From: SAR324 cluster bacterium
GTDB taxonomy: Bacteria > SAR324 > NAC60-12
Length of the DNA stretch: 64,000 bases
Assembly (NCBI GenBank): GCA_014382365.1
Contig: JACNJW010000035.1
Location: 1,165 to 65,164, forward strand
Reading direction: 5' to 3'
Shown here: positions 9,198 to 33,398 of the stretch, in pieces
How the letters are laid out: every line of letters begins with the position of its first letter
How positions within the stretch are numbered: the first letter of the stretch is position 1
The notes under the pieces: model-generated
Database searches by the model: none
Seen by the model: only the letters and a program-made list of their open reading frames with translations
What the model was told of the DNA's origin: nothing
Position numbers and translations under genes: made by a program

Positions 9198-10370
9198 ATG
9201 AATACAATATCTAGCACCGGACTTTCCGGTTACGAAAATTTAGAAGTCGGTTATGATGTTCCGGCAATGCCCGGAATGAATGAGGCGGATATTCAAACAC
9301 CATGTCTGATGATTGACCTCGACGCGCTGGAGCGCAACATTAAAACCATGGCCGGATTTGCCAAAGAGATGGGAGTACGCCATCGCATACACGGCAAAAT
9401 GCACAAGTCGGTTGACATCGCGAAACTGCAAAGAGACATGGGCGATTCTTGCGGAGTTTGCTGTCAAAAAGTCTCAGAAGCGGAAGTTTTTGCGCGAGGC
9501 GGAATCACTGATGTTTTGGTTTCAAACCAAGTACGCGATGCTGTGAAAATCGACCGTTTAGCACGTATTCCAAAACTGGGCGCACGAACCATTGTTTGCG
9601 TTGATGATCTTGAAAATGTCACTGATCTTTCTGCTGCCGCCGTCAAACACGGGACAACACTCGAATGTTTGGTCGAAATTGATTGCGGTGCAGGGCGTTG
9701 TGGAGTTGCGGCAGGTCAGCCGGTTGTCGAGATTGCCAAAGCGATTGAAGCCGCACCGAACTTAAAGTTCTCCGGAATTCAGGCCTATCAGGGTGCAATG
9801 CAACACATGAAAAGCTACAACGACCGCAAAGCCAAAATCGAGATCGCTGTTGAAATGGTTTCGCGTTCGGTGGAAATGCTGCAAGCCGAAGGACTGGAAT
9901 GCGACATTGTCGGCGGTGCCGGAACCGGAAGTTATTATTTTGAAGGTACATCGGGAGTCTATAACGAATTGCAATGCGGTTCCTACGCCTTCATGGATGC
10001 CGATTATCAAACCATTGAAGATGAAAACGGAAAACCGATTTCCGAGTTTGAAAACTCAATGTTCATTTTAACTTCGGTGATGAGCCACTCCAAAGCCGAC
10101 AAAGCCATTTGCGATGCGGGCTTGAAAGCACAATCTGTGGACAGCGGTTTGCCTTATGTTTTTGGGCGCAAAGATGTGGAGTATATCAAATGTTCGGACG
10201 AACACGGAGTGATTTCCGATCCAAACGGTGCGCTGAAAATCAACGAAAAGTTAAAATTAGTTCCGGGCCATTGCGACCCGACTGCTAATGTTCACGATTG
10301 GTATGTCGGTGTACGCGGCGGAAAAGTTGAAGCTCTGTGGCCGGTTTCGGCTCGCGGCAAGGCGTATTAA
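9198..10370 (+). CDS. bhcC: Alanine-racemase-fold (DSD1/D-threo-3-hydroxyaspartate dehydratase/aldolase) family; BhcC-like beta-hydroxyaspartate aldolase
   Basis: 390 aa. Fold-type III PLP lysine region HGKMHKS. Family typical of D-serine deaminase and D-3-hydroxyaspartate aldolase. Confidence 0.55.
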   Translation: MNTISSTGLSGYENLEVGYDVPAMPGMNEADIQTPCLMIDLDALERNIKTMAGFAKEMGVRHRIHGKMHKSVDIAKLQRDMGDSCGVCCQKVSEAEVFARGGITDVLVSNQVRDAVKIDRLARIPKLGARTIVCVDDLENVTDLSAAAVKHGTTLECLVEIDCGAGRCGVAAGQPVVEIAKAIEAAPNLKFSGIQAYQGAMQHMKSYNDRKAKIEIAVEMVSRSVEMLQAEGLECDIVGGAGTGSYYFEGTSGVYNELQCGSYAFMDADYQTIEDENGKPISEFENSMFILTSVMSHSKADKAICDAGLKAQSVDSGLPYVFGRKDVEYIKCSDEHGVISDPNGALKINEKLKLVPGHCDPTANVHDWYVGVRGGKVEALWPVSARGKAY

Positions 10371-10389: not shown

Positions 10390-11355
10390 ATGATTATCGT
10401 TCCAGAAAAAGCCATTCCAAATTTAATCGACCGTACAACTTCCTTCAAAGCAGTCGAAGCTGTTTTTGCCGCAATGTCAAACGGCGATGCCTATAATTTT
10501 CCGGTCATCCGTGAAGACATTGGTTACGTCGATGCGCTTTACGGTTTCAAATCTGGCTTTGATAAAGCTGGTTTAACACTTGGTTTGAAGTCCGGAGGGT
10601 ACTGGCCAGGTAATGCAGAAAAAGGTCTCACCAATCACCAATCCAGCATATTCCTTTTTGATGCTGATACTGGCCAAGTGAAAGCGTTGGTTGGCGGGAA
10701 TTATCTGACGGCCATACGTACGGCGGCTTCTTCAGCTATTTCCATCAAACACCTGGCTCGTGAAGACTCCAAAGTTTTGGGCATGATCGGTGCGGGGCAT
10801 CAATCGGCATTTCAGTTACGGGCGGCAGTCGAGCAACGCAATTTTGAACGCATTGTCGGCTGGAACCTCCATCCGGAAAGGCTGTCTCGTTTGGAAGAAG
10901 TTTCTGCAGAAATCGGTTTGCCGTTTGAGGCTGTAAGCTTGGAGGAATTAGGAAAAGCGTCTGATGTTATTATTTCCATTACATCCAGTTTTGCACCAAT
11001 CTTAAAAGCAACTCAAGTCAAAGCCGGCACCCACCTCGCTTGTATGGGAACCGACACCAAAGGCAAACAGGAAGTCGAAGCTGAACTGGTCACTAATGCT
11101 ACTGTTTTCACCGATGAAATTGCACAAGCAATCTCCATAGGAGAATGCCAGCACGCTTTTACCAACGGCAGTTTGAAGGCAGAGGATATTTCGGAAATCG
11201 GCCCCGTCATTTCCGGAAAACATTCCGGCAGAACAACAACAAACGAAATCACTCTTTTTGACGGAACCGGAGTCGGCCTTCAAGATTTGGCTGTAGCAAC
11301 TGTTGCTGTCGAGTTGGCCTTAGAATCAGGAGTTGCTATTGAAGTCGAAAACTAA
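10390..11355 (+). CDS. bhcD: Ornithine cyclodeaminase/mu-crystallin family; BhcD-like iminosuccinate reductase
   Basis: 321 aa. OCD/mu-crystallin Rossmann motif GMIGAGHQSAFQL. Confidence 0.55.
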   Translation: MIIVPEKAIPNLIDRTTSFKAVEAVFAAMSNGDAYNFPVIREDIGYVDALYGFKSGFDKAGLTLGLKSGGYWPGNAEKGLTNHQSSIFLFDADTGQVKALVGGNYLTAIRTAASSAISIKHLAREDSKVLGMIGAGHQSAFQLRAAVEQRNFERIVGWNLHPERLSRLEEVSAEIGLPFEAVSLEELGKASDVIISITSSFAPILKATQVKAGTHLACMGTDTKGKQEVEAELVTNATVFTDEIAQAISIGECQHAFTNGSLKAEDISEIGPVISGKHSGRTTTNEITLFDGTGVGLQDLAVATVAVELALESGVAIEVEN

Positions 11356-17621: not shown

Positions 17622-18938
17622 ATGACTACCATTTTATCATTCCTAGCAGTGCTTGGAATTCTGATTTTCATCCATGAACTCGGTCACTATCTCGCCGCCC
17701 GCCATGTAGGAGTACGCGTAGAGGCTTTCTCAATCGGCTTTCCGCCAACAGCATGGGGAAAGCAGATTGGAGAAACTGAATACCGTATTTCGTGGGTTCC
17801 TCTGGGAGGTTATGTCAAATTATTTGGACAGAATGTTAGCGATGAAAATCCGGATGACCCCACAAATTATGCGGCAAAATCAATATTTCAACGGCTTTAT
17901 ATTCTTGTTGCAGGACCGCTGATGAATCTATTGTTTGCCTTAATCATTATGCCACTGGTTTTTTGGATTGGGATGGATGTTCCTGCTTATTTAAATGAGG
18001 TTCCACGCATTCAAAATATCCTAAGCGGAGGCTATGCTCAAAAATTAGGAGTCCTTCCCAATGATGAAATTATAGCGGTGAATGCTAACCCTGTTAAAAA
18101 CTGGGAAGAACTGCATAGTACGATGGGGCAAATTTCACCTGCTGACAGTTTCAGCCTGGAAGTTTATCGAGGTGGTAATTCAGTGGCTCTTGAAGGCTCT
18201 GCTCATGAAATGCTCCGAGCCGGATCAATGGGTTGGTCACCTTTTATGGCACCGGTTGTTGGAGGATTTACCAAACTATCTCCTGCACAACAAGCCGGAA
18301 TCCGAGTAGGTGATCTAGTTTCTGCTATCAATAACAGTGCAATTCAGGACTGGAGTGAGATCTCACCGGCAATTCAAACTATCATGAATAGTAAGCTTGA
18401 TTCTGCAAATAATTCAGAAACAAACATTGCTGTTGAATTACAGAGAAATGGTGAGCTTCTATTAGTAGAAGTTGTTCCCTATTTGGAAGAAAATTCACAA
18501 CGCTGGCTTTTGGGCATGAGCATGTCAAAGATTACGCGCTCACACTCCTTTACTGAATCAGTTAAATTGGGAACCTTCCGCTTGTGGTTTCTGAGCAAAG
18601 CTACCTTTGGGTTTCTGGCTCAAATGTTCCAGGGAGAAGGATCGATGGATGATCTTGGCGGTCCGGTCAAAATCGGGATGGTGATTGGTGATGCTGTACG
18701 CAGTGGCTTGGCTGACCTGCTGTTTTTGATGTCATTCATCAGCCTTCAACTTGGTATCTTCAATTTACTGCCGATTCCTGCTTTGGACGGAGGGCATATC
18801 TTTATGTTGTTGATAGAAAAAATAAACGGTGCTCCTCTAAGTGTGGCTTTACGCGAAAGATCTCAGATGCTTGGTTTTTCTGTCCTAATCTCTTTGATGA
18901 TTTTTGTTACATGGAACGATTTAGTGAGCTTGCTCTGA
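17622..18938 (+). CDS. rseP: RIP zinc metalloprotease (site-2 protease) RseP
   Basis: HELGHY zinc motif, PDZ region, and C-terminal LDGG motif. Confidence 0.8.
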   Translation: MTTILSFLAVLGILIFIHELGHYLAARHVGVRVEAFSIGFPPTAWGKQIGETEYRISWVPLGGYVKLFGQNVSDENPDDPTNYAAKSIFQRLYILVAGPLMNLLFALIIMPLVFWIGMDVPAYLNEVPRIQNILSGGYAQKLGVLPNDEIIAVNANPVKNWEELHSTMGQISPADSFSLEVYRGGNSVALEGSAHEMLRAGSMGWSPFMAPVVGGFTKLSPAQQAGIRVGDLVSAINNSAIQDWSEISPAIQTIMNSKLDSANNSETNIAVELQRNGELLLVEVVPYLEENSQRWLLGMSMSKITRSHSFTESVKLGTFRLWFLSKATFGFLAQMFQGEGSMDDLGGPVKIGMVIGDAVRSGLADLLFLMSFISLQLGIFNLLPIPALDGGHIFMLLIEKINGAPLSVALRERSQMLGFSVLISLMIFVTWNDLVSLL

Positions 18939-18956
18939 ATGTACCTCCATTTTTAC

Positions 18957-18985
18957 TTGACAAGTTTTTAACTTTACTATAAATT
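18957..18985 (+). promoter_or_regulatory. Candidate sigma70-type promoter (TTGACA, about 15-17 nt spacer, TATAAA) for the repeat-protein gene
   Basis: The two hexamers are read directly from the sequence. A strong SD (AGAGGAGA) precedes the ATG at 19153. Confidence 0.3.
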
Positions 18986-19152
18986 TCACTAACGATCATT
19001 TTCATATTGAAAGATGACTGGCAACCGCAGATTATGAAAGGCTATGGAAGTGGATACTGCGGTAAGTATAATCCACTTTCATAAAGACAATAAACTACTC
19101 TTCATGAGCAACTTGGAGAGATATCTTTTTAACGCAAACAGAGGAGACTAAA

Positions 19153-20151
19153 ATGGCAGAAGAAACAACAGGCGGTGAGCCGCAAGCAGGACCGGGACCG
19201 GATGCAGGTCCTCCTCCAGCTGGAGAAGTAAATATAGACGGAAACACACTTTCTTCAGATGGTGAAGGCAACATGAGCTTTGAAGGAGCTGATGGGGCAC
19301 ATGGTGAAATGAGTGCAGACGGATCTGCATCATTTCAAGGACCGGAAGGTTCAGGAATATCTGGAGAAATGAATGCTGATGGTTCAGGATCATGGACTGG
19401 TTCGGACGGTACTACTACTTCTTGGGAAGCCGGTGAAGCTCCTCCTAATGACTTGCCCGGAATGGAAGCACTTCCTGATATGGGAGAAATCGCCAACTCC
19501 CCTGAAGCAGTAGAAGCTTTTGGCGGCCCTCCTCCGGGAATGATGGATGGCGAACCTGGGATAGGTCCAATGCATGGAGACATGGAAGGAGTGACAGGTG
19601 ACGTATCTGGCTGCTCGGGTGACATGACTGGTGTAACTGGAGACGTGTCTGATTGTTCTGGCGATATGTCAGGATGCCAGGGTGATATGACTGGCTGCGA
19701 AGGCGACATGTCTGGAGTCACAGGTGATGTTTCAGATTGTTCTGGAGACATGACTGGTTGTCAGGGTGACGTATCTGGCTGCTCTGGCGACATGACTGGT
19801 TGCGAAGGTGACATGACTGGAGTCACTGGTGACATGGGGCCATACGCTGGTGACATGACTGACGTGACTGGTCCTCCACCAGCTGAAATGATGGGTGCTG
19901 AGGGCGACCAAGGAATGGGTGCCATGGATCAAGCATTTGCTGACCCAGGAATGGATCCTGGAATGGCTCCTCCAGGGGATGATCCAATGGGAGCTGCACT
20001 TGACGATTCTGCTGCGGCAAGTGATGCCGGTGGTGCAGCTGGAGGCCAAGGTCCAGGACCAGACCCAATGGCTGATATGCCTGACCCAGGGATGGATCCT
20101 GGAATGGATAAAGAGCCTGAAGACGACCAGGATGGTGGTGCTATAGGTTAA
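19153..20151 (+). CDS. Acidic Gly/Asp/Met/Cys/Pro-rich repetitive protein with 14 tandem heptads GD(M/V)xG(C/V)x; no recognisable signal peptide
   Basis: 332-aa ORF with its own promoter-like hexamers and a strong SD, followed by a hairpin. No family assigned. Confidence 0.55.
   Translation: MAEETTGGEPQAGPGPDAGPPPAGEVNIDGNTLSSDGEGNMSFEGADGAHGEMSADGSASFQGPEGSGISGEMNADGSGSWTGSDGTTTSWEAGEAPPNDLPGMEALPDMGEIANSPEAVEAFGGPPPGMMDGEPGIGPMHGDMEGVTGDVSGCSGDMTGVTGDVSDCSGDMSGCQGDMTGCEGDMSGVTGDVSDCSGDMTGCQGDVSGCSGDMTGCEGDMTGVTGDMGPYAGDMTDVTGPPPAEMMGAEGDQGMGAMDQAFADPGMDPGMAPPGDDPMGAALDDSAAASDAGGAAGGQGPGPDPMADMPDPGMDPGMDKEPEDDQDGGAIG
19576..19872 (+). repeat. 14 tandem copies of a 21-nt (7-codon) repeat inside the ORF, imperfect at the DNA level
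   Basis: Protein residues 142-240: GDMEGVT GDVSGCS GDMTGVT GDVSDCS GDMSGCQ GDMTGCE GDMSGVT GDVSDCS GDMTGCQ GDVSGCS GDMTGCE GDMTGVT GDMGPYA GDMTDVT. Copies differ mostly by synonymous substitutions. Confidence 0.8.
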
Positions 20152-20168
20152 TACCAGTTGAGATCATG

Positions 20169-20202
20169 TAAGTGGTGCACTAAATTTTTTTTGCACCACT
20201 TA
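20169..20202. terminator. Perfect 11-bp inverted repeat TAAGTGGTGCA-N12-TGCACCACTTA (hairpin; candidate intrinsic terminator/attenuator or regulator site)
   Basis: Read directly. Lies 18 nt after the stop of the repeat-protein gene and 120 nt before the ABC transporter gene. Loop and 3' flank are T-rich. Confidence 0.4.
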
Positions 20203-20321
20203 TTTGACTATTTTATTATCCCAAACAAACCCACAACATGTGTGCCATTTAGAGAGATACACACCTCTTCGTTTTTCTTCAAAAATACTAATCCTAAAAC
20301 CTTCTTAAAAATAAATCCACT

Positions 20322-22547
20322 ATGTTTGGCAAGAAAAAAAATGAAATTCTTGTTGATCACAGGCTGGCTTATTGCGTCTCTTTGACCACCAGAAGGCATG
20401 GAGTATATATAAATCGTGAGGAGGTAGAAAAAAAATTCCCTGAAGACGATCCTCCAAAAACCACTAGAGAATTAAATGCTTTTCTCGCAGAGAGAAAACT
20501 TGAAGCAAATCCAATAAATATTTCAACAGATGATTTCAAGGATAAAAATTTCGTATTTCCCTGTGCAGTTCCATTTACGAATGGTCAGTCAATCATAGCA
20601 TTAAGTGTACTGAAGAAAGACGATGATTTTTTTGTTAAGTTTCTTGACCCGTTAGACCCTCAAGCCAGGCAACAGGAAGTTGGAATAAATGAATTTGAGA
20701 AACTTTGGAAAAATATTGTTTTTTCAGTAAATGCACTAAGAGGTACTGAAAGTAAAGAAAGATCTTTTGATTTAGAATGGTTCCTTCCTGAATTATGGAA
20801 ATGCAGATATATGCTTCTTTGTGCTTTCATAATTTCTATTCTACTGAATATATTATCATTTACTCCTATAATTTTCATACAGATAGCCTTAGATAAAGTT
20901 GTAGGATATAAAGCTATTTCTACTTTATATGTACTGACAGCAGGAGTTGTTGTTGCACTAATATTTAATGCAATAATGGGTTTTATTCGCGATTACATTT
21001 TCAATTACATAGGAGATATACTTGAGTCCAGAATTGCAACTGATGTCTTTGACAAATTGCTGGGACTACCCTTAATAGAAGTTCAAGGAGAAAACATAAC
21101 TAAATTTGGGGGCTCAATGCAATCAATTACAGCCTTAAGGAATACTCTGGTCATGAGAGTGTTTAAGGTAGTTTTCGATTTGACTGCTGTACTCGTTTTT
21201 GTCCCAGTTATGTTTGCATATAATTTCCTGATGGGAATAATAGTGCTTGGATTTTCTCTGTTGATGGGTTTTAACAAAATCATTTTTAACAATATTGCAG
21301 GTAAATCTCCAGAAATACTAAACGAAGTGGAAAGTAGTAAAAACAGTCTGGTTCGCGAAACCCTGCATGGAATGACAATGCTCAAAGAGTTTGAAGAGGA
21401 AGAATCGGAGAGGAAAAATTGGCGAAAATCTGCTGCTGCTTCAATTATGTTAAGATCAAAGAAAAATCAGGTAAACAGCGCATCCACCGAGATTAACAGC
21501 TTTCTTCAACAAGCAATGACAATTGTAATTATCTTTACTGGAGTACAATTAGTTTTTGCTGAGCAGCTTTCTGCTGGTTCAATCATAGCGATTAATATGG
21601 TCGCTGGAAAATTAACCTCTCCTATTATTGCTGCAATCACATTATTTGGTGAAAGAACACAAATATTAAACCTTATCTCTCAAATAGGTGAGATTTGGAA
21701 TAAGGGAAAAGAACAATTGGGAGCAGGTGTTCACTCAGCCATAAGTGGAAAATATACTTTTGATAAAATTTCAATGAGTTTTGGAGATGTAAAAGCATTA
21801 AACAAAATATCTTTTGAGCTAACACCAAAATCCAAAGTTGGAGTAGTGGGTCCTACTGGAGCAGGCAAAAGCACATTGTTAAATATTCTTGCAGGAACAT
21901 TTCATCCTACAGAAGGTAGAATGGAAATAGATGGAGTAGGAATAAATCAATATGATTTATCATATTACCGTTCGCAGGTTATGCTGTTGGATAAGAAACC
22001 CATATTTTTTAAAGGTACAATAGAAGACAATATGTCCCGGGTGACACACAACATTGGTAAAAATGAACTTGCACACATTTTTGCTTTAACAGGATTTGAT
22101 GAACACCTACAAAAACTGCCTGAAGGTATTCATACAACAATTGATGAAACTGCCAGCCAATTGGCTGGTGGAGCTGCAAGCCTGCTTGCACTTTCAAGGG
22201 CTTTGCTTGCAAATCCAAAAGTCTTGCTTTTGGATGAGTTTGCAGATTCACTTGATATTGATACCAGAATTAAATTACAAGATAACTTTTCTACTATCGC
22301 CAGTGAAAGAACCGTGGTCGATGCTCAAAATGTAATAAGTCATGAATTAGATTCAATATCGAATTATGATAAAATTATTGTCTTAGATGGAGGTAAAGTA
22401 GTTGGACAAGGCAAGCATGAGCAGCTGCTTGTTAGTTGTGAAATTTATAGGCAAATGCTGGAAAAAGAAAAAAAATTGAGTGCAATTGGTGAATCGAAAA
22501 ATACAGAAACAAAAGAAAATCCTCCTGTGGATCAAGAAAATGCTTAG
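20322..22547 (+). CDS. Type I secretion/bacteriocin-type ABC exporter with N-terminal C39-peptidase-like domain, 6-TM exporter domain and C-terminal ATPase
   Basis: 741 aa. N-terminal ~150 aa resembles the C39 Cys-box (LAYCVSLTTRRHGVYINREEV). Then a type I exporter TMD. Walker A GPTGAGKST, Walker B LLLDEFADSLD, H-loop SHE. The signature motif reads LAGGAASL rather than LSGGQ. Confidence 0.75.
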   Translation: MFGKKKNEILVDHRLAYCVSLTTRRHGVYINREEVEKKFPEDDPPKTTRELNAFLAERKLEANPINISTDDFKDKNFVFPCAVPFTNGQSIIALSVLKKDDDFFVKFLDPLDPQARQQEVGINEFEKLWKNIVFSVNALRGTESKERSFDLEWFLPELWKCRYMLLCAFIISILLNILSFTPIIFIQIALDKVVGYKAISTLYVLTAGVVVALIFNAIMGFIRDYIFNYIGDILESRIATDVFDKLLGLPLIEVQGENITKFGGSMQSITALRNTLVMRVFKVVFDLTAVLVFVPVMFAYNFLMGIIVLGFSLLMGFNKIIFNNIAGKSPEILNEVESSKNSLVRETLHGMTMLKEFEEEESERKNWRKSAAASIMLRSKKNQVNSASTEINSFLQQAMTIVIIFTGVQLVFAEQLSAGSIIAINMVAGKLTSPIIAAITLFGERTQILNLISQIGEIWNKGKEQLGAGVHSAISGKYTFDKISMSFGDVKALNKISFELTPKSKVGVVGPTGAGKSTLLNILAGTFHPTEGRMEIDGVGINQYDLSYYRSQVMLLDKKPIFFKGTIEDNMSRVTHNIGKNELAHIFALTGFDEHLQKLPEGIHTTIDETASQLAGGAASLLALSRALLANPKVLLLDEFADSLDIDTRIKLQDNFSTIASERTVVDAQNVISHELDSISNYDKIIVLDGGKVVGQGKHEQLLVSCEIYRQMLEKEKKLSAIGESKNTETKENPPVDQENA

Positions 22548-22564
22548 GTTTGGGAAATAACTAA

Positions 22565-24313
22565 ATGACTGTAGCAACAAACACATTGAAACCCCAATTA
22601 TTAGTGCTGAAAAAAGGGGAGTATGTCTTTGAAGAAGGAGATGAAGCAATATTTGCTTATGTTCTCACTGAAGGCACAATTGAGATTGTTGCAATTATCA
22701 AAGGAGAAGAACTGGTTCTGGGAAAAGTAGAAAAAGGGACTATTTTTGGAGAAATGGCAATAATTGATGGCTTCCCGAGAAGCGCATCAGCACGTGCTGC
22801 CACTGCTTGTAAAGTACAAGAAGTTGGTCATAAAGAATTTCTTAATTATATTTCTAAAAAACCGGATGCTGCATTCCAAATAATGGGTAGACTATCTGGT
22901 TTTGTCAGGTCTGCTGATAAAAAAGCAAGTGAAAGTTTTTTGCTTCGTAAAACAGGTGTAAGTGAGGAAGAAGAAGATGGAAATAATGATAAGACCGACA
23001 TCGTTGCTGTACATAATTTTGAAGACACAGAGTCGATTTATGCCAGACCTCCTGCTAAACCTGTCATCGTCACTGCAGTCAGTTTGATCCTATTCATGTT
23101 GGTCATGACCCTCTGGGCATCTTTTTCTTTTGTTGATAAAACAGTTTCTGCACGTGGTAAATTCACAAATACTGCACCTAATATTGAAATTCAATCTACT
23201 GGTAGTTCAATTATTGAGGAATTAAATTTAGAACGAGGTCAATTCATTACAAAAGGAGAAACAGTTGCAAAACTTGATGGCACTGTTGTAAATGCAAATC
23301 TCAAAATTACCAGAGACAAAATATATGCAGTAAAAAATAAAATTTTGCGCCTTGAACTTCAAAAAATATCAATCTTACAAAAATCCTTAAATGAGGAATC
23401 TCTGGTTGAACTGGACAGTATTAACAAAGAAATATTAAACAGACACTTTGATGAATTTATGATTACAATGAAAACATTTTCTTCTGATCTTTTACGGTTA
23501 GAAACAGAAATTGTTTCAATGTCTGCAGATAAAGATTTAATTCGTGACCAGCTGGATATAAAAATTAAAATTGAAGATGGAAAAAAGAAGTTGTTTGAGA
23601 AAAATGTTGGTTCATTAATGGACACATTGAGTTCTACTGATCAAAGAATTTCTGTGAACCGTCAATTATTGTCAACAACTGGAAGTATCAAAAAACTCAA
23701 ATCAGAAAAAACAGCACTTGATGACCAGAGATCCTCTTATTTGACTGGAGAATTAGCAGGAATCGCAGTAGAACTTTCTTCTTTTAATGATCAATTACTT
23801 CAATTAAATGAGGAGTTAATTAAAAATGAATTAGAGAGAAGCAATTTATTTATTAAATCTCCAGTTGAAGGTGTTGTCTTAAATTTGCCTACAATTACGA
23901 TTGGATCTCTCATAAATAAAGGAGAGCCTATAGTAACATTAGTAAGAGCCGGATTACCCCTTGTTTTAGAGATTGATGTAGATCCAAAAGATGCCAGTGA
24001 TTTGTATAATGGGAATCCTGTTTCAGTCAAAATTGATGCCCTGCCATTTCAACAGTTTGGAGACCTGGCAGGAACCCTGGTCTATATTTCAGATGATACT
24101 GTAGAAGAATCCCTTCAGGGAGAATCCGGTGCTTTTTATCGTGGAAGAGTTCATGTTAAAGATTCTGAAATTATGGGATTGCCTGAAGAATTCGATTTAA
24201 CACCAGGTATGCTGGCAACTGCAGATTTAAAAGTAGGCAAAAGAAGATTGATTACATATTTTACAAATCCAATTCTAAAATCACTTTCAAGTGCTATGCG
24301 TGAACCGGATTAA
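22565..24313 (+). CDS. HlyD-family membrane fusion protein with N-terminal cyclic-nucleotide-binding (CAP-family) domain
   Basis: 582 aa. Residues ~15-120 carry cNMP-binding motifs (GEYVFEEGDEA...FGEMAIIDG..RSASARA). One TM (VIVTAVSLILFMLVMTLWASF). Long coiled-coil and a C-terminal HlyD beta-barrel region (...PGMLATADLKVGKRRL...). Confidence 0.7.
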   Translation: MTVATNTLKPQLLVLKKGEYVFEEGDEAIFAYVLTEGTIEIVAIIKGEELVLGKVEKGTIFGEMAIIDGFPRSASARAATACKVQEVGHKEFLNYISKKPDAAFQIMGRLSGFVRSADKKASESFLLRKTGVSEEEEDGNNDKTDIVAVHNFEDTESIYARPPAKPVIVTAVSLILFMLVMTLWASFSFVDKTVSARGKFTNTAPNIEIQSTGSSIIEELNLERGQFITKGETVAKLDGTVVNANLKITRDKIYAVKNKILRLELQKISILQKSLNEESLVELDSINKEILNRHFDEFMITMKTFSSDLLRLETEIVSMSADKDLIRDQLDIKIKIEDGKKKLFEKNVGSLMDTLSSTDQRISVNRQLLSTTGSIKKLKSEKTALDDQRSSYLTGELAGIAVELSSFNDQLLQLNEELIKNELERSNLFIKSPVEGVVLNLPTITIGSLINKGEPIVTLVRAGLPLVLEIDVDPKDASDLYNGNPVSVKIDALPFQQFGDLAGTLVYISDDTVEESLQGESGAFYRGRVHVKDSEIMGLPEEFDLTPGMLATADLKVGKRRLITYFTNPILKSLSSAMREPD

Positions 24314-27080: not shown

Positions 27081-28358
27081 CTATTGCTTCAAATAAGTTT
27101 CCAGTGTTTCTTTTGACGCCTGTAGAGAGTTCATGTCGTTCGGTTCAACACGGACTTTTGAGGATTGTACTTTCCATTTCCATTGATTTTCTTGAGCATC
27201 ACTCATGATACCCTGCCGGCCTCGTCCGTCCGGCGCAAACTCTGCCTGAGCAAGCACATAACCTTGACCGGTACTTTTTTCACTTGCTTCCAATATTACA
27301 GATACATATTCATATTGTGGATTATCTGGTGCACCTGAAAGCTCACTGTTATGAATCTGCCTGGCTGCATTCATGGCCACACGGGCACGCTCCCTGGCGG
27401 TTCTTGCTTCCGGAGCAATAATACGAACCAACAAACGTGTCCGTGTTGAACTGCTCTGATCTTCGACCATCAAAACCTGATAGGGTGGAATAGGACTGTT
27501 ATTATTTGCAGTCCTGACTTTCTGTGCAGACAACTGACTCAACAGCAAAATCAGTAATGCCAGTAAAGAACCAATTGCTAAAAGAGACCAACGTTCCCAA
27601 CTATGTTTCATAAACGATAAAAACCTGGGCCAGCGAAGCATAAGCGGAGGAAAAAATGGGATGCTCCAGACAACAAGAAAAACTCCGGCAAGTGGTGAAA
27701 ATAAAGATATTCCCACTCCAAGAGAAATACTTAAAATTGAAAACAGCCAATCCATCACATAACCCTCAATATGTTTAACTTTTGGCTGTTCAGACTCTGC
27801 AGCTGAATCTCTAACCACAGTTCCACCACCATCAGCTAATGCTGGAGGTTCCGGAATACTTTCGGTAACAGGCGGCAGTTTCAAGGATTCTTCTTCAATA
27901 TCTTTGGCTGCCAGATATATTGAATTGCACCAGATATTTGCTGAATATAATGTTGACTCACAACTTGGATTTGGTACCGGTAAATTCTGTAATGCTGTGT
28001 GTAGTGGTAGAACCAAACTGTGCATTTTGCTGCAGGAAGAACAACAACTGGAACTATTTATTTTTACTTTTTGCTGCCCATTCTGCTGCAGGTCCAGCAA
28101 ACGTGATTGGTGTGATTTTTGTTGATATACAAAAGAATTTTCACCAAGTTTGTCCTTGAACAGGGCCATATTCCAGTACAGCATCTGCAAGGTTTGATAG
28201 TTGATGGCCTTTTTTGCCAAATCTTCAAAAAGAGAGAAAAACACCTCATTTTCATCAACTTCTTCCCCAGCAGATTTGCTGAGTAAATTCATTTTTTCGT
28301 CAAAATCTTTGGCAGTAACCCCAAATGCACGTAAATCTTCGGGAATGGAAACAGTCAT
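27081..28358 (-). CDS. Hypothetical membrane protein co-oriented with gspF (cytoplasmic N-domain, hydrophobic core, C-terminal domain)
   Basis: 425 aa, no confident family. Architecture loosely resembles GspL-like platform partners. Cys-cluster CCSSCS. Confidence 0.35.
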   Translation of the reverse strand: MTVSIPEDLRAFGVTAKDFDEKMNLLSKSAGEEVDENEVFFSLFEDLAKKAINYQTLQMLYWNMALFKDKLGENSFVYQQKSHQSRLLDLQQNGQQKVKINSSSCCSSCSKMHSLVLPLHTALQNLPVPNPSCESTLYSANIWCNSIYLAAKDIEEESLKLPPVTESIPEPPALADGGGTVVRDSAAESEQPKVKHIEGYVMDWLFSILSISLGVGISLFSPLAGVFLVVWSIPFFPPLMLRWPRFLSFMKHSWERWSLLAIGSLLALLILLLSQLSAQKVRTANNNSPIPPYQVLMVEDQSSSTRTRLLVRIIAPEARTARERARVAMNAARQIHNSELSGAPDNPQYEYVSVILEASEKSTGQGYVLAQAEFAPDGRGRQGIMSDAQENQWKWKVQSSKVRVEPNDMNSLQASKETLETYLKQ

Positions 28359-30799: not shown

Positions 30800-31786
30800 T
30801 TATTTTTTCCAAAGTAAATATACTTTGGCACTCATGCCTGCCCTCAATTTGTGATCCTTGTTGTCTGCTTTGACAAATATCGGGAAGCGTCCTGTTTCCG
30901 GATCTGCGGACCATGAAATTCGTTCTATTGTTCCAGAAAATTTGGTGTTCTGATAACCTGGTGTAGTAAAGACAACTGACTGCCCCTCACTTATATTAGG
31001 TAGATCTTCTTCTCCCACCTGTATTCCAATTTCCACCTGAGTGATGTCTATAATTTGAAAAAGAACTGCGCCTGGAGTGATCACTTCTCCCTCTTCAAAA
31101 AATTTTGCAGTAATAATTCCTGTAATTTTTGCTTTGATTTGAGTGTCTCCCAGAGTTTCCTCACGAAGTGCAACATCATGTTTAGAACGCTCCACCGCTA
31201 AACGAGCATTTTCCACTCCCAACTGAGCACGCTTAACTTCCTGCTCCGTTCGCTTTAAACCAAGTATAACGTTTTTTAGTGCCAATTCTCCTCGATTGTA
31301 CTGTAACTGCAATGACTCTAATTGTGAACGGGTAGAGGAACCTTGATTAAATAAAGTTTTTTCATCTAACAACCTGCGTTGAATGTCCTTCAAATTTGTT
31401 TCCAAATCTTTGACATTATTAACACTGACTGCAATTTGTACTTTTGCCAAATTGAGTTGTACTTCACGATCAGCCACACTATTTTCATTAACTTTGTGCT
31501 GCAATCGGGTTAATTCCAGTTGCCGTTTCTGTGTTTCATGATGGAGTGTGAGCAGCAACTGATCTTTGGCAACAGTTTGATTCTCTTTTACATGAATAGC
31601 CGTAACTCTTCCGCCAACACTGGCCTGAACTTTCAGGGTTTCTGCTGCCTGAATTATGCCGGAAAGAGAAATTGGATTCTGCACGTAATCTGCAGCTTTT
31701 GTTTCCAGTGAAGTTGCTGACGTTGACAAAGGTAAAACTAAAACTAGCGCTAATGAATTACAGAAAATTTTTAGACGAATAAACAT
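30800..31786 (-). CDS. Efflux/secretion periplasmic adaptor (HlyD/MFP family) with signal peptide
   Basis: 328 aa. Biotinyl-lipoyl-like hairpin, coiled-coil, beta-barrel pattern. Downstream of TolC on the same strand. Confidence 0.65.
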   Translation of the reverse strand: MFIRLKIFCNSLALVLVLPLSTSATSLETKAADYVQNPISLSGIIQAAETLKVQASVGGRVTAIHVKENQTVAKDQLLLTLHHETQKRQLELTRLQHKVNENSVADREVQLNLAKVQIAVSVNNVKDLETNLKDIQRRLLDEKTLFNQGSSTRSQLESLQLQYNRGELALKNVILGLKRTEQEVKRAQLGVENARLAVERSKHDVALREETLGDTQIKAKITGIITAKFFEEGEVITPGAVLFQIIDITQVEIGIQVGEEDLPNISEGQSVVFTTPGYQNTKFSGTIERISWSADPETGRFPIFVKADNKDHKLRAGMSAKVYLLWKK

Positions 31787-31823: not shown

Positions 31824-33398
31824 TTAATTCAACTCGTACTGCTCATAAAATCCTCCAGCCAAAGCCAGTAATTCTACTCGGACTTTCTCTTGACGAATCC
31901 GGATAAGGATTAGCTGCTGTTGTGCTTCCACCACATCCTGTTGATACTGTGAAATTCGATAGCTGGTACTTTTACCTAACTTGAAGCGCTCAATTTCATT
32001 ACGTAACTGATCTTGAGAAAGCAGACTCACTGCTGATGCAGTTGTTTGTTCCTTCTCAATCAAACTCAATGTACGTAATAAAGATTGTAAGTTGACATCC
32101 AACTGAGATTTACGATCCTCTATCTGCAGAATTAGCTGTTGCTGCTCCAGACGTTTGCGCTGGATGTTTTCACTGGTAGCCTGATCTCCCAATGGAACGT
32201 TCCAGGTCAGTGTTGCACTCAAACCATGAAGTTTGCTTTTAGCAAAATCGGCTGTTCCACCAAAAGCACTTTTGCTGTAACCATTTAAGATATAGGACAA
32301 GTTCAAGTCCAGGTTAGTCTTTTGTTTGTTAAATTCCTGTTCCAACTGCTGCCGATTTTGCTCCAATGTAGCTTTTGTCAATCCAATTTGGGAATCGTGC
32401 TGATAGATTTTTTCCAACAGCTCTGTAACATTCTCCGGAACGACAGACTTAGCTCCCGGCTTATCTACTGGAAAAAGACCAACAGGTAAGTTTTTCAAAT
32501 TAAGTGCTGCACGAACCTGATCTTCGACGCGCAGAGCGTCTAATCTTGACGAAAGCAGGCCCTGACGATTCCGCATCAATTGAGTTTCAGTAACCCTGAC
32601 TTCAGTTGAACTCAACATACCTGCCTCAAGTTTTGCCTGATTGTCACGTAATAATTTTTCTGACAAATCTACTGCTTTCTTTTTAACCTCAATAGTTTCT
32701 AATATTCCAACTAAATCCCAATATATTGATGCAACTTGCTTAAGCAGAGACAATTCCGTTTGACTGGTATTCAGCCTTCCTCTGGTCAGACCAATTTCCG
32801 CCAACCGGACTGGTATTTCGTTAAATTCTGTACCCCAATCCTGAAAAATTGGTATCGAAATGCTGCTGGTTAAGCTAACCGTGTTCAGTACATCTCCAGT
32901 AGTTCCAGCAGTAACATCACCACCTAGTTCCGCCTGCGAAAGAGTTGTTGATTTTTTGCTTTTTTCAGAATAAGTCAGGCCATAAGTCAAACCGCTGTCA
33001 GTACGCTGACTGTATGCAGAAGAAAAAGATATGCTGTTGGTACTGCTTCCGCAAAGTTCTGCGGGAGAACAACTTGAAGAGGCGGTTAGAGCTGGGGTAT
33101 TGGAGTAAGCAAAACTCGTTGTAATGCTGGGAGTGTTTCTTTCTTCTGCCGCATTCACGGCACGTTGTGCTGCATCGTTACCAAGTTTTGAGACCTTCAG
33201 CAAAATGCTCCTGTCAATTGCCAGCTGCAATACTAGTTTAAGCGGGACTTCCGCCATTTCGCGGCCGTCCACTGTTATCAAGTTAACCTGTTTCAACAGC
33301 TGGGCAGTTGCAGTCTGTGCATGAACTGGAGCTGTACCTGCAAAGACAAACAACAATAGAAAAAACATTTGTATTTTTATTAATTTTTTCAAATACAT
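31824..33398 (-). CDS. tolC: TolC-family outer membrane channel
   Basis: 524 aa. Signal peptide, two coiled-coil/beta repeat halves typical of outer-membrane efflux proteins. Confidence 0.7.
   Translation of the reverse strand: MYLKKLIKIQMFFLLLFVFAGTAPVHAQTATAQLLKQVNLITVDGREMAEVPLKLVLQLAIDRSILLKVSKLGNDAAQRAVNAAEERNTPSITTSFAYSNTPALTASSSCSPAELCGSSTNSISFSSAYSQRTDSGLTYGLTYSEKSKKSTTLSQAELGGDVTAGTTGDVLNTVSLTSSISIPIFQDWGTEFNEIPVRLAEIGLTRGRLNTSQTELSLLKQVASIYWDLVGILETIEVKKKAVDLSEKLLRDNQAKLEAGMLSSTEVRVTETQLMRNRQGLLSSRLDALRVEDQVRAALNLKNLPVGLFPVDKPGAKSVVPENVTELLEKIYQHDSQIGLTKATLEQNRQQLEQEFNKQKTNLDLNLSYILNGYSKSAFGGTADFAKSKLHGLSATLTWNVPLGDQATSENIQRKRLEQQQLILQIEDRKSQLDVNLQSLLRTLSLIEKEQTTASAVSLLSQDQLRNEIERFKLGKSTSYRISQYQQDVVEAQQQLILIRIRQEKVRVELLALAGGFYEQYELN

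Follow-up and report, generated by a model that had tools for sequence, protein, structure and literature searches.

The locus and its genes

The window examined here is a 64,000-nucleotide stretch of a SAR324 cluster bacterium genome (GenBank assembly GCA_014382365.1, contig JACNJW010000035.1, forward-strand positions 1,165 to 65,164), and the subject of this report is the open reading frame (ORF) at 19153-20151, which encodes a 332-amino-acid, very acidic protein containing an uninterrupted block of Gly-Asp heptads. The genes around it run in the order uppS, cdsA, dxr, rseP, the 19153-20151 ORF, a type I secretion ATP-binding cassette (ABC) exporter, and an HlyD adaptor (Table 1). The two secretion genes lie directly downstream of the ORF and were absent from the original prediction, which had been made from the DNA letters alone and had proposed a soft-metal-binding protein or a novel repeat fold. 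The ORF is a real gene, and we think it probable that its product is the cargo of the adjacent type I secretion system (T1SS), belonging to a family of type I cargo that is specific to SAR324 and lacks RTX repeats. We therefore refer to it below as the putative cargo gene.

Table 1. Positions of the putative cargo gene, its parts, and associated features. Positions are those of the window unless a related locus is named.
Feature	Position	Strand	Remarks
Promoter-like site, TTGACA-17-TAAATT	18957..18985	+	10/12 matches; tentative, weak
Shine-Dalgarno sequence, AGAGGAG	19140..19146	+	6 nt before ATG (7-13 nt upstream); read from the sequence
Putative cargo gene	19153..20151	+	ORF with ATG start; 332-aa acidic modular repeat protein
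N-terminal "DG" repeat domain	19219..19437	+	Residues 23-95; predicted single-layer beta-meander
Pro/Met/Glu-rich linker	19438..19575	+	Residues 96-141; pLDDT 44-58
Fourteen heptads	19576..19869	+	Residues 142-239; predicted right-handed beta-helix
Conserved C-terminal module	19870..20148	+	Residues 240-332, ~90 aa; proposed secretion/targeting region
Stem-loop and U-rich tract between cargo and ABC genes	20168..20203	+	12-bp stem; terminator- or attenuator-like
Type I secretion ABC exporter, HlyB/LssB-like	20322..22547	+	Starts 170 nt after the cargo stop
HlyD-family type I secretion adaptor	22565..24313	+	TIGR01843 2e-76, above cut-off
TolC-family outer-membrane factor	31824..33398	-	PF02321 2.9e-21; possible third component
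ORF of an acidic repeat class	L085 865-2364		Related locus
ORF of an acidic repeat class	L087 815-2311		Related locus
ORF of an acidic repeat class	L088 109-1452		Related locus
ORF of an acidic repeat class	L036 4-405		Related locus
ORF of an acidic repeat class	L005 5072-5878		Related locus
ORF of an acidic repeat class	L002 7949-9031		Related locus

Heptad repeats and the common C-terminal module

By composition, the protein is 22.6% G, 13.3% D, 9.9% P, 9.6% A, 9.0% M, and 2.4% C; it contains 67 acidic residues (D+E) versus a single basic one (K+R), and its pI is ~4.05. The heptads have the form GD(M/V)(T/S)G(V/C)x and follow one another in register, each opening with GD. The acidic GD-heptad protein that had been described is thus confirmed, as is the count of 14 heptads, which end at residue 239 and not at 240. 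From the frequencies of G (0.226) and D (0.133), we calculate the chance of 14 GD pairs at a period of seven as ~5e-22 per start position. The DNA periods that Tandem Repeats Finder detected (21, 42, and 84 nt) match at only 65-77%, which marks the repeats as old, with DNA that has diverged, and not as the outcome of recent slippage. Position 6 reads, in order, V C V C C C V C C C C V Y V, so that the alternation between a valine type and a cysteine type noted earlier holds only loosely; the PGMDPGM units that had been reported in the C-terminal part are present there as DPGMDPGM, which occurs twice.

Statistics over the family were taken from 665 heptads of 50 members, in which the number of heptads per protein ranges from 4 to 32. 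Position 1 is G in 100% and position 2 is D in 97%, and no other position is fixed. Position 3 is M (55%), V (29%), C (5%), T (4%), I (3%), or L (3%); position 4 is T (51%) or S (36%); position 5 is G in 65%; position 6 is V (48%), C (22%), M (9%), A (6%), or I (6%); and position 7 is T, S, E, or A. Even at E<=10, the heptad sequence matched no sequence family in Pfam, NCBIfam, or the PDB, and searches of Pfam and NCBIfam with the whole protein and with each of its modules, up to E = 10, yielded nothing meaningful. There were no matches in the protein to the RTX pattern GG.G.[DN], nor any HemolysinCabind match in Pfam or NCBIfam at E<=10. The statement that the heptad belongs to no known repeat class, being distinct from RTX, pentapeptide, hexapeptide, and collagen repeats, consequently stands.

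The protein's N-terminus reads MAEETTGGEPQAGPGPD; the maximum Kyte-Doolittle average over 19 residues is 0.34, and no Sec or Tat signal peptide, transmembrane segment, or other hydrophobic segment was found in the 332 residues. Between the N-terminal domain and the ADGSSG repeats of related loci, identity is 42%. The C-terminal module begins at residue 240, immediately where the heptads stop, and its consensus is PPAEMMG..GDQGMGAMD..DDPMGAALD..AA..DA..GQG.PD.MAD..(E/D)DDQ.GGA(I/V/L)G. Alignments and ORF read-outs indicate that this module is the sole region common to every family member, including those that have no heptads. Its passenger is in most members an alpha-helical Ala/Glu-rich domain together with heptads, and in the window protein and its homologues P0001 and P0002, DG repeats together with heptads. 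It is also found on proteins made purely of ADGSSGSYSADGSSTHTDADGNSHSMD repeats (the ADGSSG-repeat proteins of L085, L087, and L088), on a protein of GDPGMAAGDPGGPPPGDM repeats (the GDPGM-repeat protein of L036), and on P0052, which is Met/Pro-rich and devoid of heptads.

Further classes of very acidic repeats were seen in the related loci, with ADGSSG...DADGN, GQGGEQGG, GDPGMAAGDPGG, or MPADAMGGMDADMM repeats (ORFs in Table 1). The L002 and L005 ORFs extend past the ends of their contigs; wherever the C-terminus can be seen, these classes carry the common C-terminal module and belong to the same arrays. Some of their motifs we take to resemble DxDxDG Ca2+-binding loops. The IMG label "YjbJ (UPF0337 family)" attached to heptad proteins P0009 and P0081 was judged a probable low-complexity mis-annotation; neither the window heptad block nor P0081, the two sequences scanned for it, has a CsbD/UPF0337 Pfam match.

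Coding evidence

A search of 5.8 billion proteins returned 53 homologues, all from marine metagenomes and none of them functionally named, and a DNA-level scan found 80 further loci, so that with the protein set there are more than 130 marine homologues. Among orthologues, the ratio of nonsynonymous to synonymous substitution rates (dN/dS) in the sense frame is 0.29-0.66. The sequence AGGAG(A) stands at an equal distance from the ATG in related loci; thus both the Shine-Dalgarno sequence and the start codon are conserved. By contrast, the promoter-like site is called only tentatively because the region upstream has no DNA-level conservation across the related loci, as determined by a blastn search for a shared promoter.

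It had been noted from the outset that the antisense frame is also open across the repeats, and the ORF might therefore have been spurious or the antisense frame the one translated. The antisense strand is partly open, with ORFs of 138 and 105 amino acids spanning the repeats, and one antisense frame has a dN/dS like that of the sense frame; the latter is a reflection of the sense values because the two frames have their third codon positions in common. For the same reason, codon-position counts cannot separate sense from antisense, and we relied instead on stop counts and on conservation of the full-length ORF. Across the gene, the sense frame contains no stops, whereas every other frame contains 3-29 and the antisense frames 3-9; moreover, the sense frame is the only one that stays free of stops over 300-570 codons in the more than 130 homologues, which are 35-79% identical. 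For the non-repetitive parts at the N- and C-termini, conservation is confined to the sense frame, and it is in this frame that AlphaFold finds a confident domain. Taken with the conserved Shine-Dalgarno sequence and ATG, these results effectively refute both a spurious ORF and an antisense gene, and they argue against the concern that the ORF is not translated.

Exporter genes and conservation of gene order

The best NCBIfam models for the ABC exporter are TIGR03375 (1e-107) and TIGR01846 (1.5e-105), both under their curated cut-offs, and its best PDB match is Escherichia coli HlyB over the full length (residues 15-707, E 3e-75). The N-terminal 155 amino acids match only the C39-like domain of HlyB (7sgr, 3zua) and no active C39 peptidase, and a two-residue extension of the alignment places His13 at the position of the catalytic cysteine, which is Tyr9 in HlyB. 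The protein is therefore an HlyB-class exporter with a non-catalytic C39-like domain. Relative to HlyB, four extra residues are present just before the H-loop. Given an exporter without the catalytic cysteine and a product of 332 amino acids, we rejected a double-glycine-leader precursor of a bacteriocin or of a ribosomally synthesized and post-translationally modified peptide (RiPP); the N-terminal TGG (residues 6-8), which might have passed for a GG leader, is missing in the closest homologues, P0001 and P0002.

The HlyD adaptor has an N-terminal cyclic-nucleotide-binding domain (PF00027, 9e-19, residues 14-98), and the same domain was found in the adaptors of all four related loci that were checked (L004, L007, L015, and L091), which suggests that export may be gated by cAMP or cGMP. 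The TolC-family gene is 7.5 kb away, outside the operon; a second adaptor gene, at 30800-31786, goes with it, so that it is only tentatively assigned to this exporter system.

RseP, cargo, ABC, and HlyD genes were located in 90 fetched loci, 60 of which had enough downstream sequence to be informative. In 33 of the 60, the ABC gene starts 162-187 nt after the stop codon of the last gene carrying the C-terminal module, counting two outliers, one at 215 nt and one at 2792 nt (L008, where a second cargo gene lies between); the ABC genes of these loci are 87-100% identical to that of the window. The other 27 are mostly first copies in multi-gene arrays (e.g., L008, L036, L038, and L082), which open with rseP and cargo 1, continue with a duplicated remnant of the 3' end of rseP, cargo 2, and so on, and close with ABC and HlyD. 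The remnant comprises the last ~45 codons of rseP and follows the cargo gene; in L008 it occupies 10652-10813, and there, as read from the sequence, the second cargo gene comes next. A copy of the rseP end after the cargo gene is also found in L001, L026, L043, L047, L054, L057, L059, and L066. These copies are taken as the footprint of a tandem duplication whose unit runs from the 3' end of rseP through the intergenic region to the cargo gene. Cargo proteins are 35-77% identical between loci, whereas the exporter is at least 87% identical. The synteny of the window is repeated in a metagenome-assembled genome from NCBI (L091), and L007 retains cargo, ABC, and HlyD, with no match to rseP in the 20.6 kb fetched (~9 kb upstream). 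An inverted arrangement in L004, a Logan contig in which the 3' third of the ABC gene is joined at 9984-10000 to an inverted cargo gene, was set aside as most likely an assembly chimera, the junction being inside the ABC gene.

The stem-loop between the cargo and ABC genes has a folding energy of -23.7 kcal/mol (z = -4.5). It is present in 26 of 26 distinct intergenic sequences, with compensatory changes in two of nine core pairs, and it recalls the attenuator between hlyA and hlyB. A scan of 18800-20500 against Rfam found nothing. Over 19000-24300, G+C is 51-55% in the cargo gene and 31-37% in ABC and HlyD, with flanks of 40-47% upstream and 40-41% downstream; the high value of the cargo gene may be due to its content of Gly, Asp, Ala, and Pro codons. 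Farther downstream, 27081-28358 on the minus strand encodes a 425-amino-acid protein with a C-terminal DUF4875 domain, between T2SSF and ArgJ; no gene of similar size is called at that position in L004 and L091.

Predicted fold

AlphaFold was run on the monomer, both for the whole protein with a 50-sequence alignment and for the heptad block alone with no alignment. In the former model, residues 21-100 form eight short strands with a predicted local distance difference test (pLDDT) score of ~90, and the heptads (pLDDT 70-76) follow a strict seven-residue strand pattern; the heptad block alone gave the same solenoid, with pLDDT 74-81. The C-terminal module is predicted to be disordered, with two short helices. 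Hence the earlier description of the protein as largely disordered outside the heptads agrees with the predicted disorder of the C-terminus but not with the N-terminal domain, which is a confidently predicted beta-meander.

Judging by these models, the heptads probably form a right-handed three-sided beta-helix, and we infer about three heptads (~21 residues) per turn. The heptad model superposes on Ag43 (2.7 A over 106 residues) and on bactofilin (2.1 A over 84 residues), and further structural matches were to TibA, pectate-lyase-like proteins, and MpAFP (2.8 A); helices with 14-15 residues per turn fit poorly, at 9-10 A, and a viral structure library contained no match to the model at E<=0.001. 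The suggestion of a novel repeat fold is accordingly disfavored by a model of moderate confidence, because the predicted fold is a known architecture to which the structures of several beta-helices correspond.

A probable cargo of the adjacent type I secretion system

A module common to otherwise unrelated passengers, at a fixed spacing from an exporter, is the signature of type I secretion cargo, in this case without RTX nonapeptides. In the mechanism that we propose, the C-terminal module (residues 240-332) would be an uncleaved secretion and recognition region, and charge repulsion would keep the chain, with its large excess of acidic residues, unfolded in the cytoplasm; the chain would then be threaded through a channel made of the ABC exporter, HlyD, and an outer-membrane factor. 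Once outside the cell, the heptads would fold into the beta-helix, about three to a turn, with Met/Val (position 3) and Val/Cys (position 6) forming the core and Thr/Ser facing outward. The invariant Asp residues might be stacked in ladders that need counter-cations, which would be the Ca2+ or Mg2+ of seawater, although this step is purely conjectural. Like RTX repeats, whose folding is described as extracellular and cation-driven in PMC5018854, the heptads could then serve as an extracellular, cation-driven folding ratchet. The mature product would probably be a surface or extracellular protein with a structural or adhesive role, and it would be a fast-evolving one, the repeat copy number differing between strains.

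The composition of the C-terminal 50 residues bears on the proposed signal. The residues L, D, A, V, T, S, I, and F (LDAVTSIF) make up 46% of this region (family mean 52%), which is far below the 66% of HlyA but falls inside the 38-56% of the proven non-RTX cargo proteins of Ehrlichia (PMC3417381). The residues K, H, P, M, W, and C make up 24% versus 6% in HlyA.

A number of points tell against the proposed mechanism. The described substrates of HlyB-class exporters with a C39-like domain are RTX proteins, and yet the GGxGxD nonapeptide is missing here. The last 50 residues are rich in Pro and Met, which is atypical of described T1SS signals, and eight Cys residues are unusual for T1SS cargo. 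The signature motif of the ABC exporter is LAGGA and not LSGGQ; since LAGGA is identical in L007, it is not a sequencing error, and the ATPase site of what would be a homodimeric exporter may be degenerate. No outer-membrane factor is encoded within the operon. All of the synteny comes from one lineage, with exporters at least 87% identical, and the adjacency therefore counts for less than if it were conserved among distant taxa. The beta-helix has only moderate model confidence (pLDDT 70-80), and the cargo's secretion and its dependence on cations are both deduced from sequence and context. Two last points are the placement of hydrophobic residues at heptad positions 3 and 6, which is the a/d spacing of a coiled coil, and a weak match of the family profile to the P22 gp26 coiled coil (4lin, E 1e-3).

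These last two points would be explained if the protein were still T1SS cargo but its heptads formed a trimeric alpha-helical coiled-coil fiber, with Met/Val as a and Val/Cys as d. The family profile also retrieves stalk repeats of trimeric autotransporters, for example the GNVTTLQ repeats of P0074 (YadA_stalk, YadA_anchor), which themselves match gp26 (4lin, E 1.6e-12), and an AlphaFold run on a monomer cannot build a trimer. However, two Gly per heptad (G1 in 100% and G5 in 65%) combined with Thr, Ser, Val, and Asp make for poor helix formers; about 6% of family heptads contain Gly4-Pro5 (GDMGPVT), which is helix-breaking; and AlphaFold returned a beta-solenoid both with and without an alignment. 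No YadA domain was found in the window protein by Pfam. Because of the two Gly, the Thr/Ser/Val content, the Gly-Pro heptads, and the mutual consistency of the AlphaFold models, we rate the coiled coil lower than the beta-helix for the SAR324 repeat, as a rather unlikely but serious alternative. It is also conceivable, with a probability that we regard as slight, that the protein is a cytoplasmic acidic scaffold or polymer, whether bactofilin-like or a disordered regulator, that merely lies beside exporter genes. The absence of a signal peptide and a beta-helix core set between low-complexity tails, as in bactofilins, would fit such a protein. The likeness is at the fold level of a moderate-confidence model only, with no Pfam bactofilin (PF04519) match at E<=10, and neither the fixed spacing to the ABC gene nor the sharing of a C-terminal module by unrelated passengers would be expected; in addition, a 67:1 ratio of acidic to basic residues would presumably oppose folding and polymerization at cytoplasmic cation levels.

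The soft-metal hypothesis, in which Met, Cys, and Asp would be ligands of a protein that binds or sequesters Cu(I), Cd, or Zn, does not gain support from the family. In its favor, Met makes up 9% and Cys 2.4% of the residues, MxxM and MxxxM spacings occur a few times, Met is enriched throughout the family and outside the heptads too (PGMDPGM, AEMMG), and the related locus L005 encodes a Met-rich neighboring repeat protein (MPADAMGGMDADMM; its C-terminus is not seen). Only G1 and D2 of the heptad are fixed, however, and at the Met and Cys columns of the window protein orthologues often carry V, L, I, or A, Met exchanging with V/I/L and Cys with V/A/I; these therefore behave as generic, interchangeable hydrophobic core positions. 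The protein has no CxxC, CxC, CC, or MxM, and contains two MxxM, two His, and eight Cys. The sole side chain that does not vary is that of Asp, a hard ligand; no metal-binding family in Pfam or NCBIfam was matched; and the neighbors encode a protein exporter and not metal resistance, with no metal-homeostasis gene adjacent to the cargo gene among the window neighbors scanned. Metal binding as the function is thus improbable, and it keeps a small probability because the family-wide enrichment of Met is real. A more speculative thought is that this Met-rich family, if secreted, might also bind Cu(I) and contribute to marine metal-ligand pools.

The wider heptad class

A profile search of 1.84 billion cluster representatives gave 3910 matches at E<=1e-3, 719 at E<=1e-10, and 42 at E<=1e-30, nearly all of which run through the heptad block. 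We inspected the 142 new proteins among the 150 best profile matches. At least four consecutive G-[DN]-x5 heptads were present in 80 of the 142, and most of these 80 have Thr/Ser at position 4 and hydrophobic residues at positions 3 and 6; position 5 is Gly-majority in 21. From its sequence, we read P0122 as an S8-protease autotransporter-like protein and the C-terminal region of P0158 as LamG-like. The matches also include a phage-like giant (P0069) and small heptad proteins, P0138, P0161, P0174, and P0081, which have a C-terminal ER..G..V.DL motif in common. For the G-[DN]-hydrophobic-[ST]-x-hydrophobic-x repeat in P0069-P0210 there is no Pfam or NCBIfam model, and the source names of these proteins are not meaningful; sub-threshold matches of distant heptad proteins to RiPP_TigB and to zero-stretch coiled-coil families were dismissed as compositional. 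The repeat-aware search therefore shows a heptad class that is widespread yet unannotated.

A larger claim, which we put forward tentatively and consider on the whole unlikely, is that the heptad would be an undescribed extracellular folding repeat that replaces RTX in HlyB-class T1SS with a C39-like domain, forming a beta-helix of 21-residue turns with Asp ladders that need Ca2+ or Mg2+, and that it would at the same time be the SAR324 branch of the 719-cluster unannotated class, which extends to autotransporters, phage-like proteins, and small proteins.

In the dark ocean, SAR324 ranks with the most abundant groups of uncultured bacteria; to our knowledge it has no described secreted proteins, and our literature search found no paper that joins SAR324 with type I secretion. 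The locus offers a concrete pairing of cargo and exporter: hypervariable, very acidic repeat proteins with one common C-terminal module, an HlyB-class exporter, and an adaptor with a cyclic-nucleotide-binding domain. If our interpretation is correct, HlyB-class type I systems with a C39-like domain would not be restricted to RTX cargo, and there would be a second Gly/Asp repeat solution to the problem of a protein that is unfolded inside the cell and folded outside. It would also provide a first handle on a widespread heptad repeat that is unannotated in domain databases, and a tempting but unsupported annotation as metal-binding would be removed.

Relation to known systems

Close parallels exist with RTX proteins such as HlyA and CyaA. 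They too are acidic, have no N-terminal signal, and carry Gly/Asp-rich tandem repeats just before the C-terminal region, and directly downstream of their gene come an ABC exporter, whose C39-like domain is non-catalytic, and HlyD, with a hairpin between cargo and exporter. In both, the repeats are parallel beta with the hydrophobic residues inside, which for the SAR324 protein is a prediction from the model. The RTX unit, however, is the nine-residue GGxGxDxUx, and the SAR324 unit is the seven-residue GD(M/V)(T/S)G(V/C)x; RTX repeats form a two-sided beta-roll of 18 residues per turn, whereas the heptads are predicted to be three-sided with ~21; and, unlike RTX proteins, the SAR324 protein has a C-terminal region rich in Pro, Met, and Asp and contains Cys.

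Among cargo proteins without RTX, the tandem-repeat proteins of Ehrlichia chaffeensis (PMC3417381) are similarly acidic (pI ~4), lack a signal peptide and canonical RTX, and have an intermediate LDAVTSIF content in the C-terminal 50 residues. They differ in that their repeats are long Ser/Glu-rich units and not heptads, and in that their secretion has been shown experimentally. No sequence similarity of the SAR324 protein to such cargo was detected. The title of Finnie et al. 1998 (cited in PMC3034196), which speaks of the Rhizobium glycanases PlyA and PlyB "with a novel heptapeptide repeat motif", gives a precedent for repeats of seven residues in cargo of a T1SS.

The stalks of trimeric autotransporters and the P22 tail needle, gp26, have the same G-[DN]-hydrophobic-[ST]-x-hydrophobic-x register. 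Their heptads, however, lack Pro and contain no more than one Gly each, and solved structures show them to be alpha-helical, whereas the SAR324 heptad contains two Gly and frequently Gly-Pro, and a YadA anchor is missing. Met-rich proteins that bind Cu(I) or Ag(I) include CusF, PcoE/SilE, and the Met-rich loops of CueO and CopA. High Met content and partial predicted disorder are features in common with the SAR324 protein, which in contrast has no conserved array of MxxM, MxxH, or HxxM, almost no His, and no metal-resistance context.

With respect to fold, the protein can be compared with the self-associating autotransporters Ag43 and TibA and with region IV of the ice-binding protein MpAFP, whose backbones superpose on the heptad model at 2.7-3.5 A over 100-108 residues. 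Their outward faces are rich in Thr/Ser and they are extracellular, as is predicted for the SAR324 protein. They differ from it in sequence (5-18% identity) and in having ~19 residues per turn, and Ag43 and TibA use type V secretion. Region IV of MpAFP is a Ca2+-dependent beta-helix in a T1SS adhesin.

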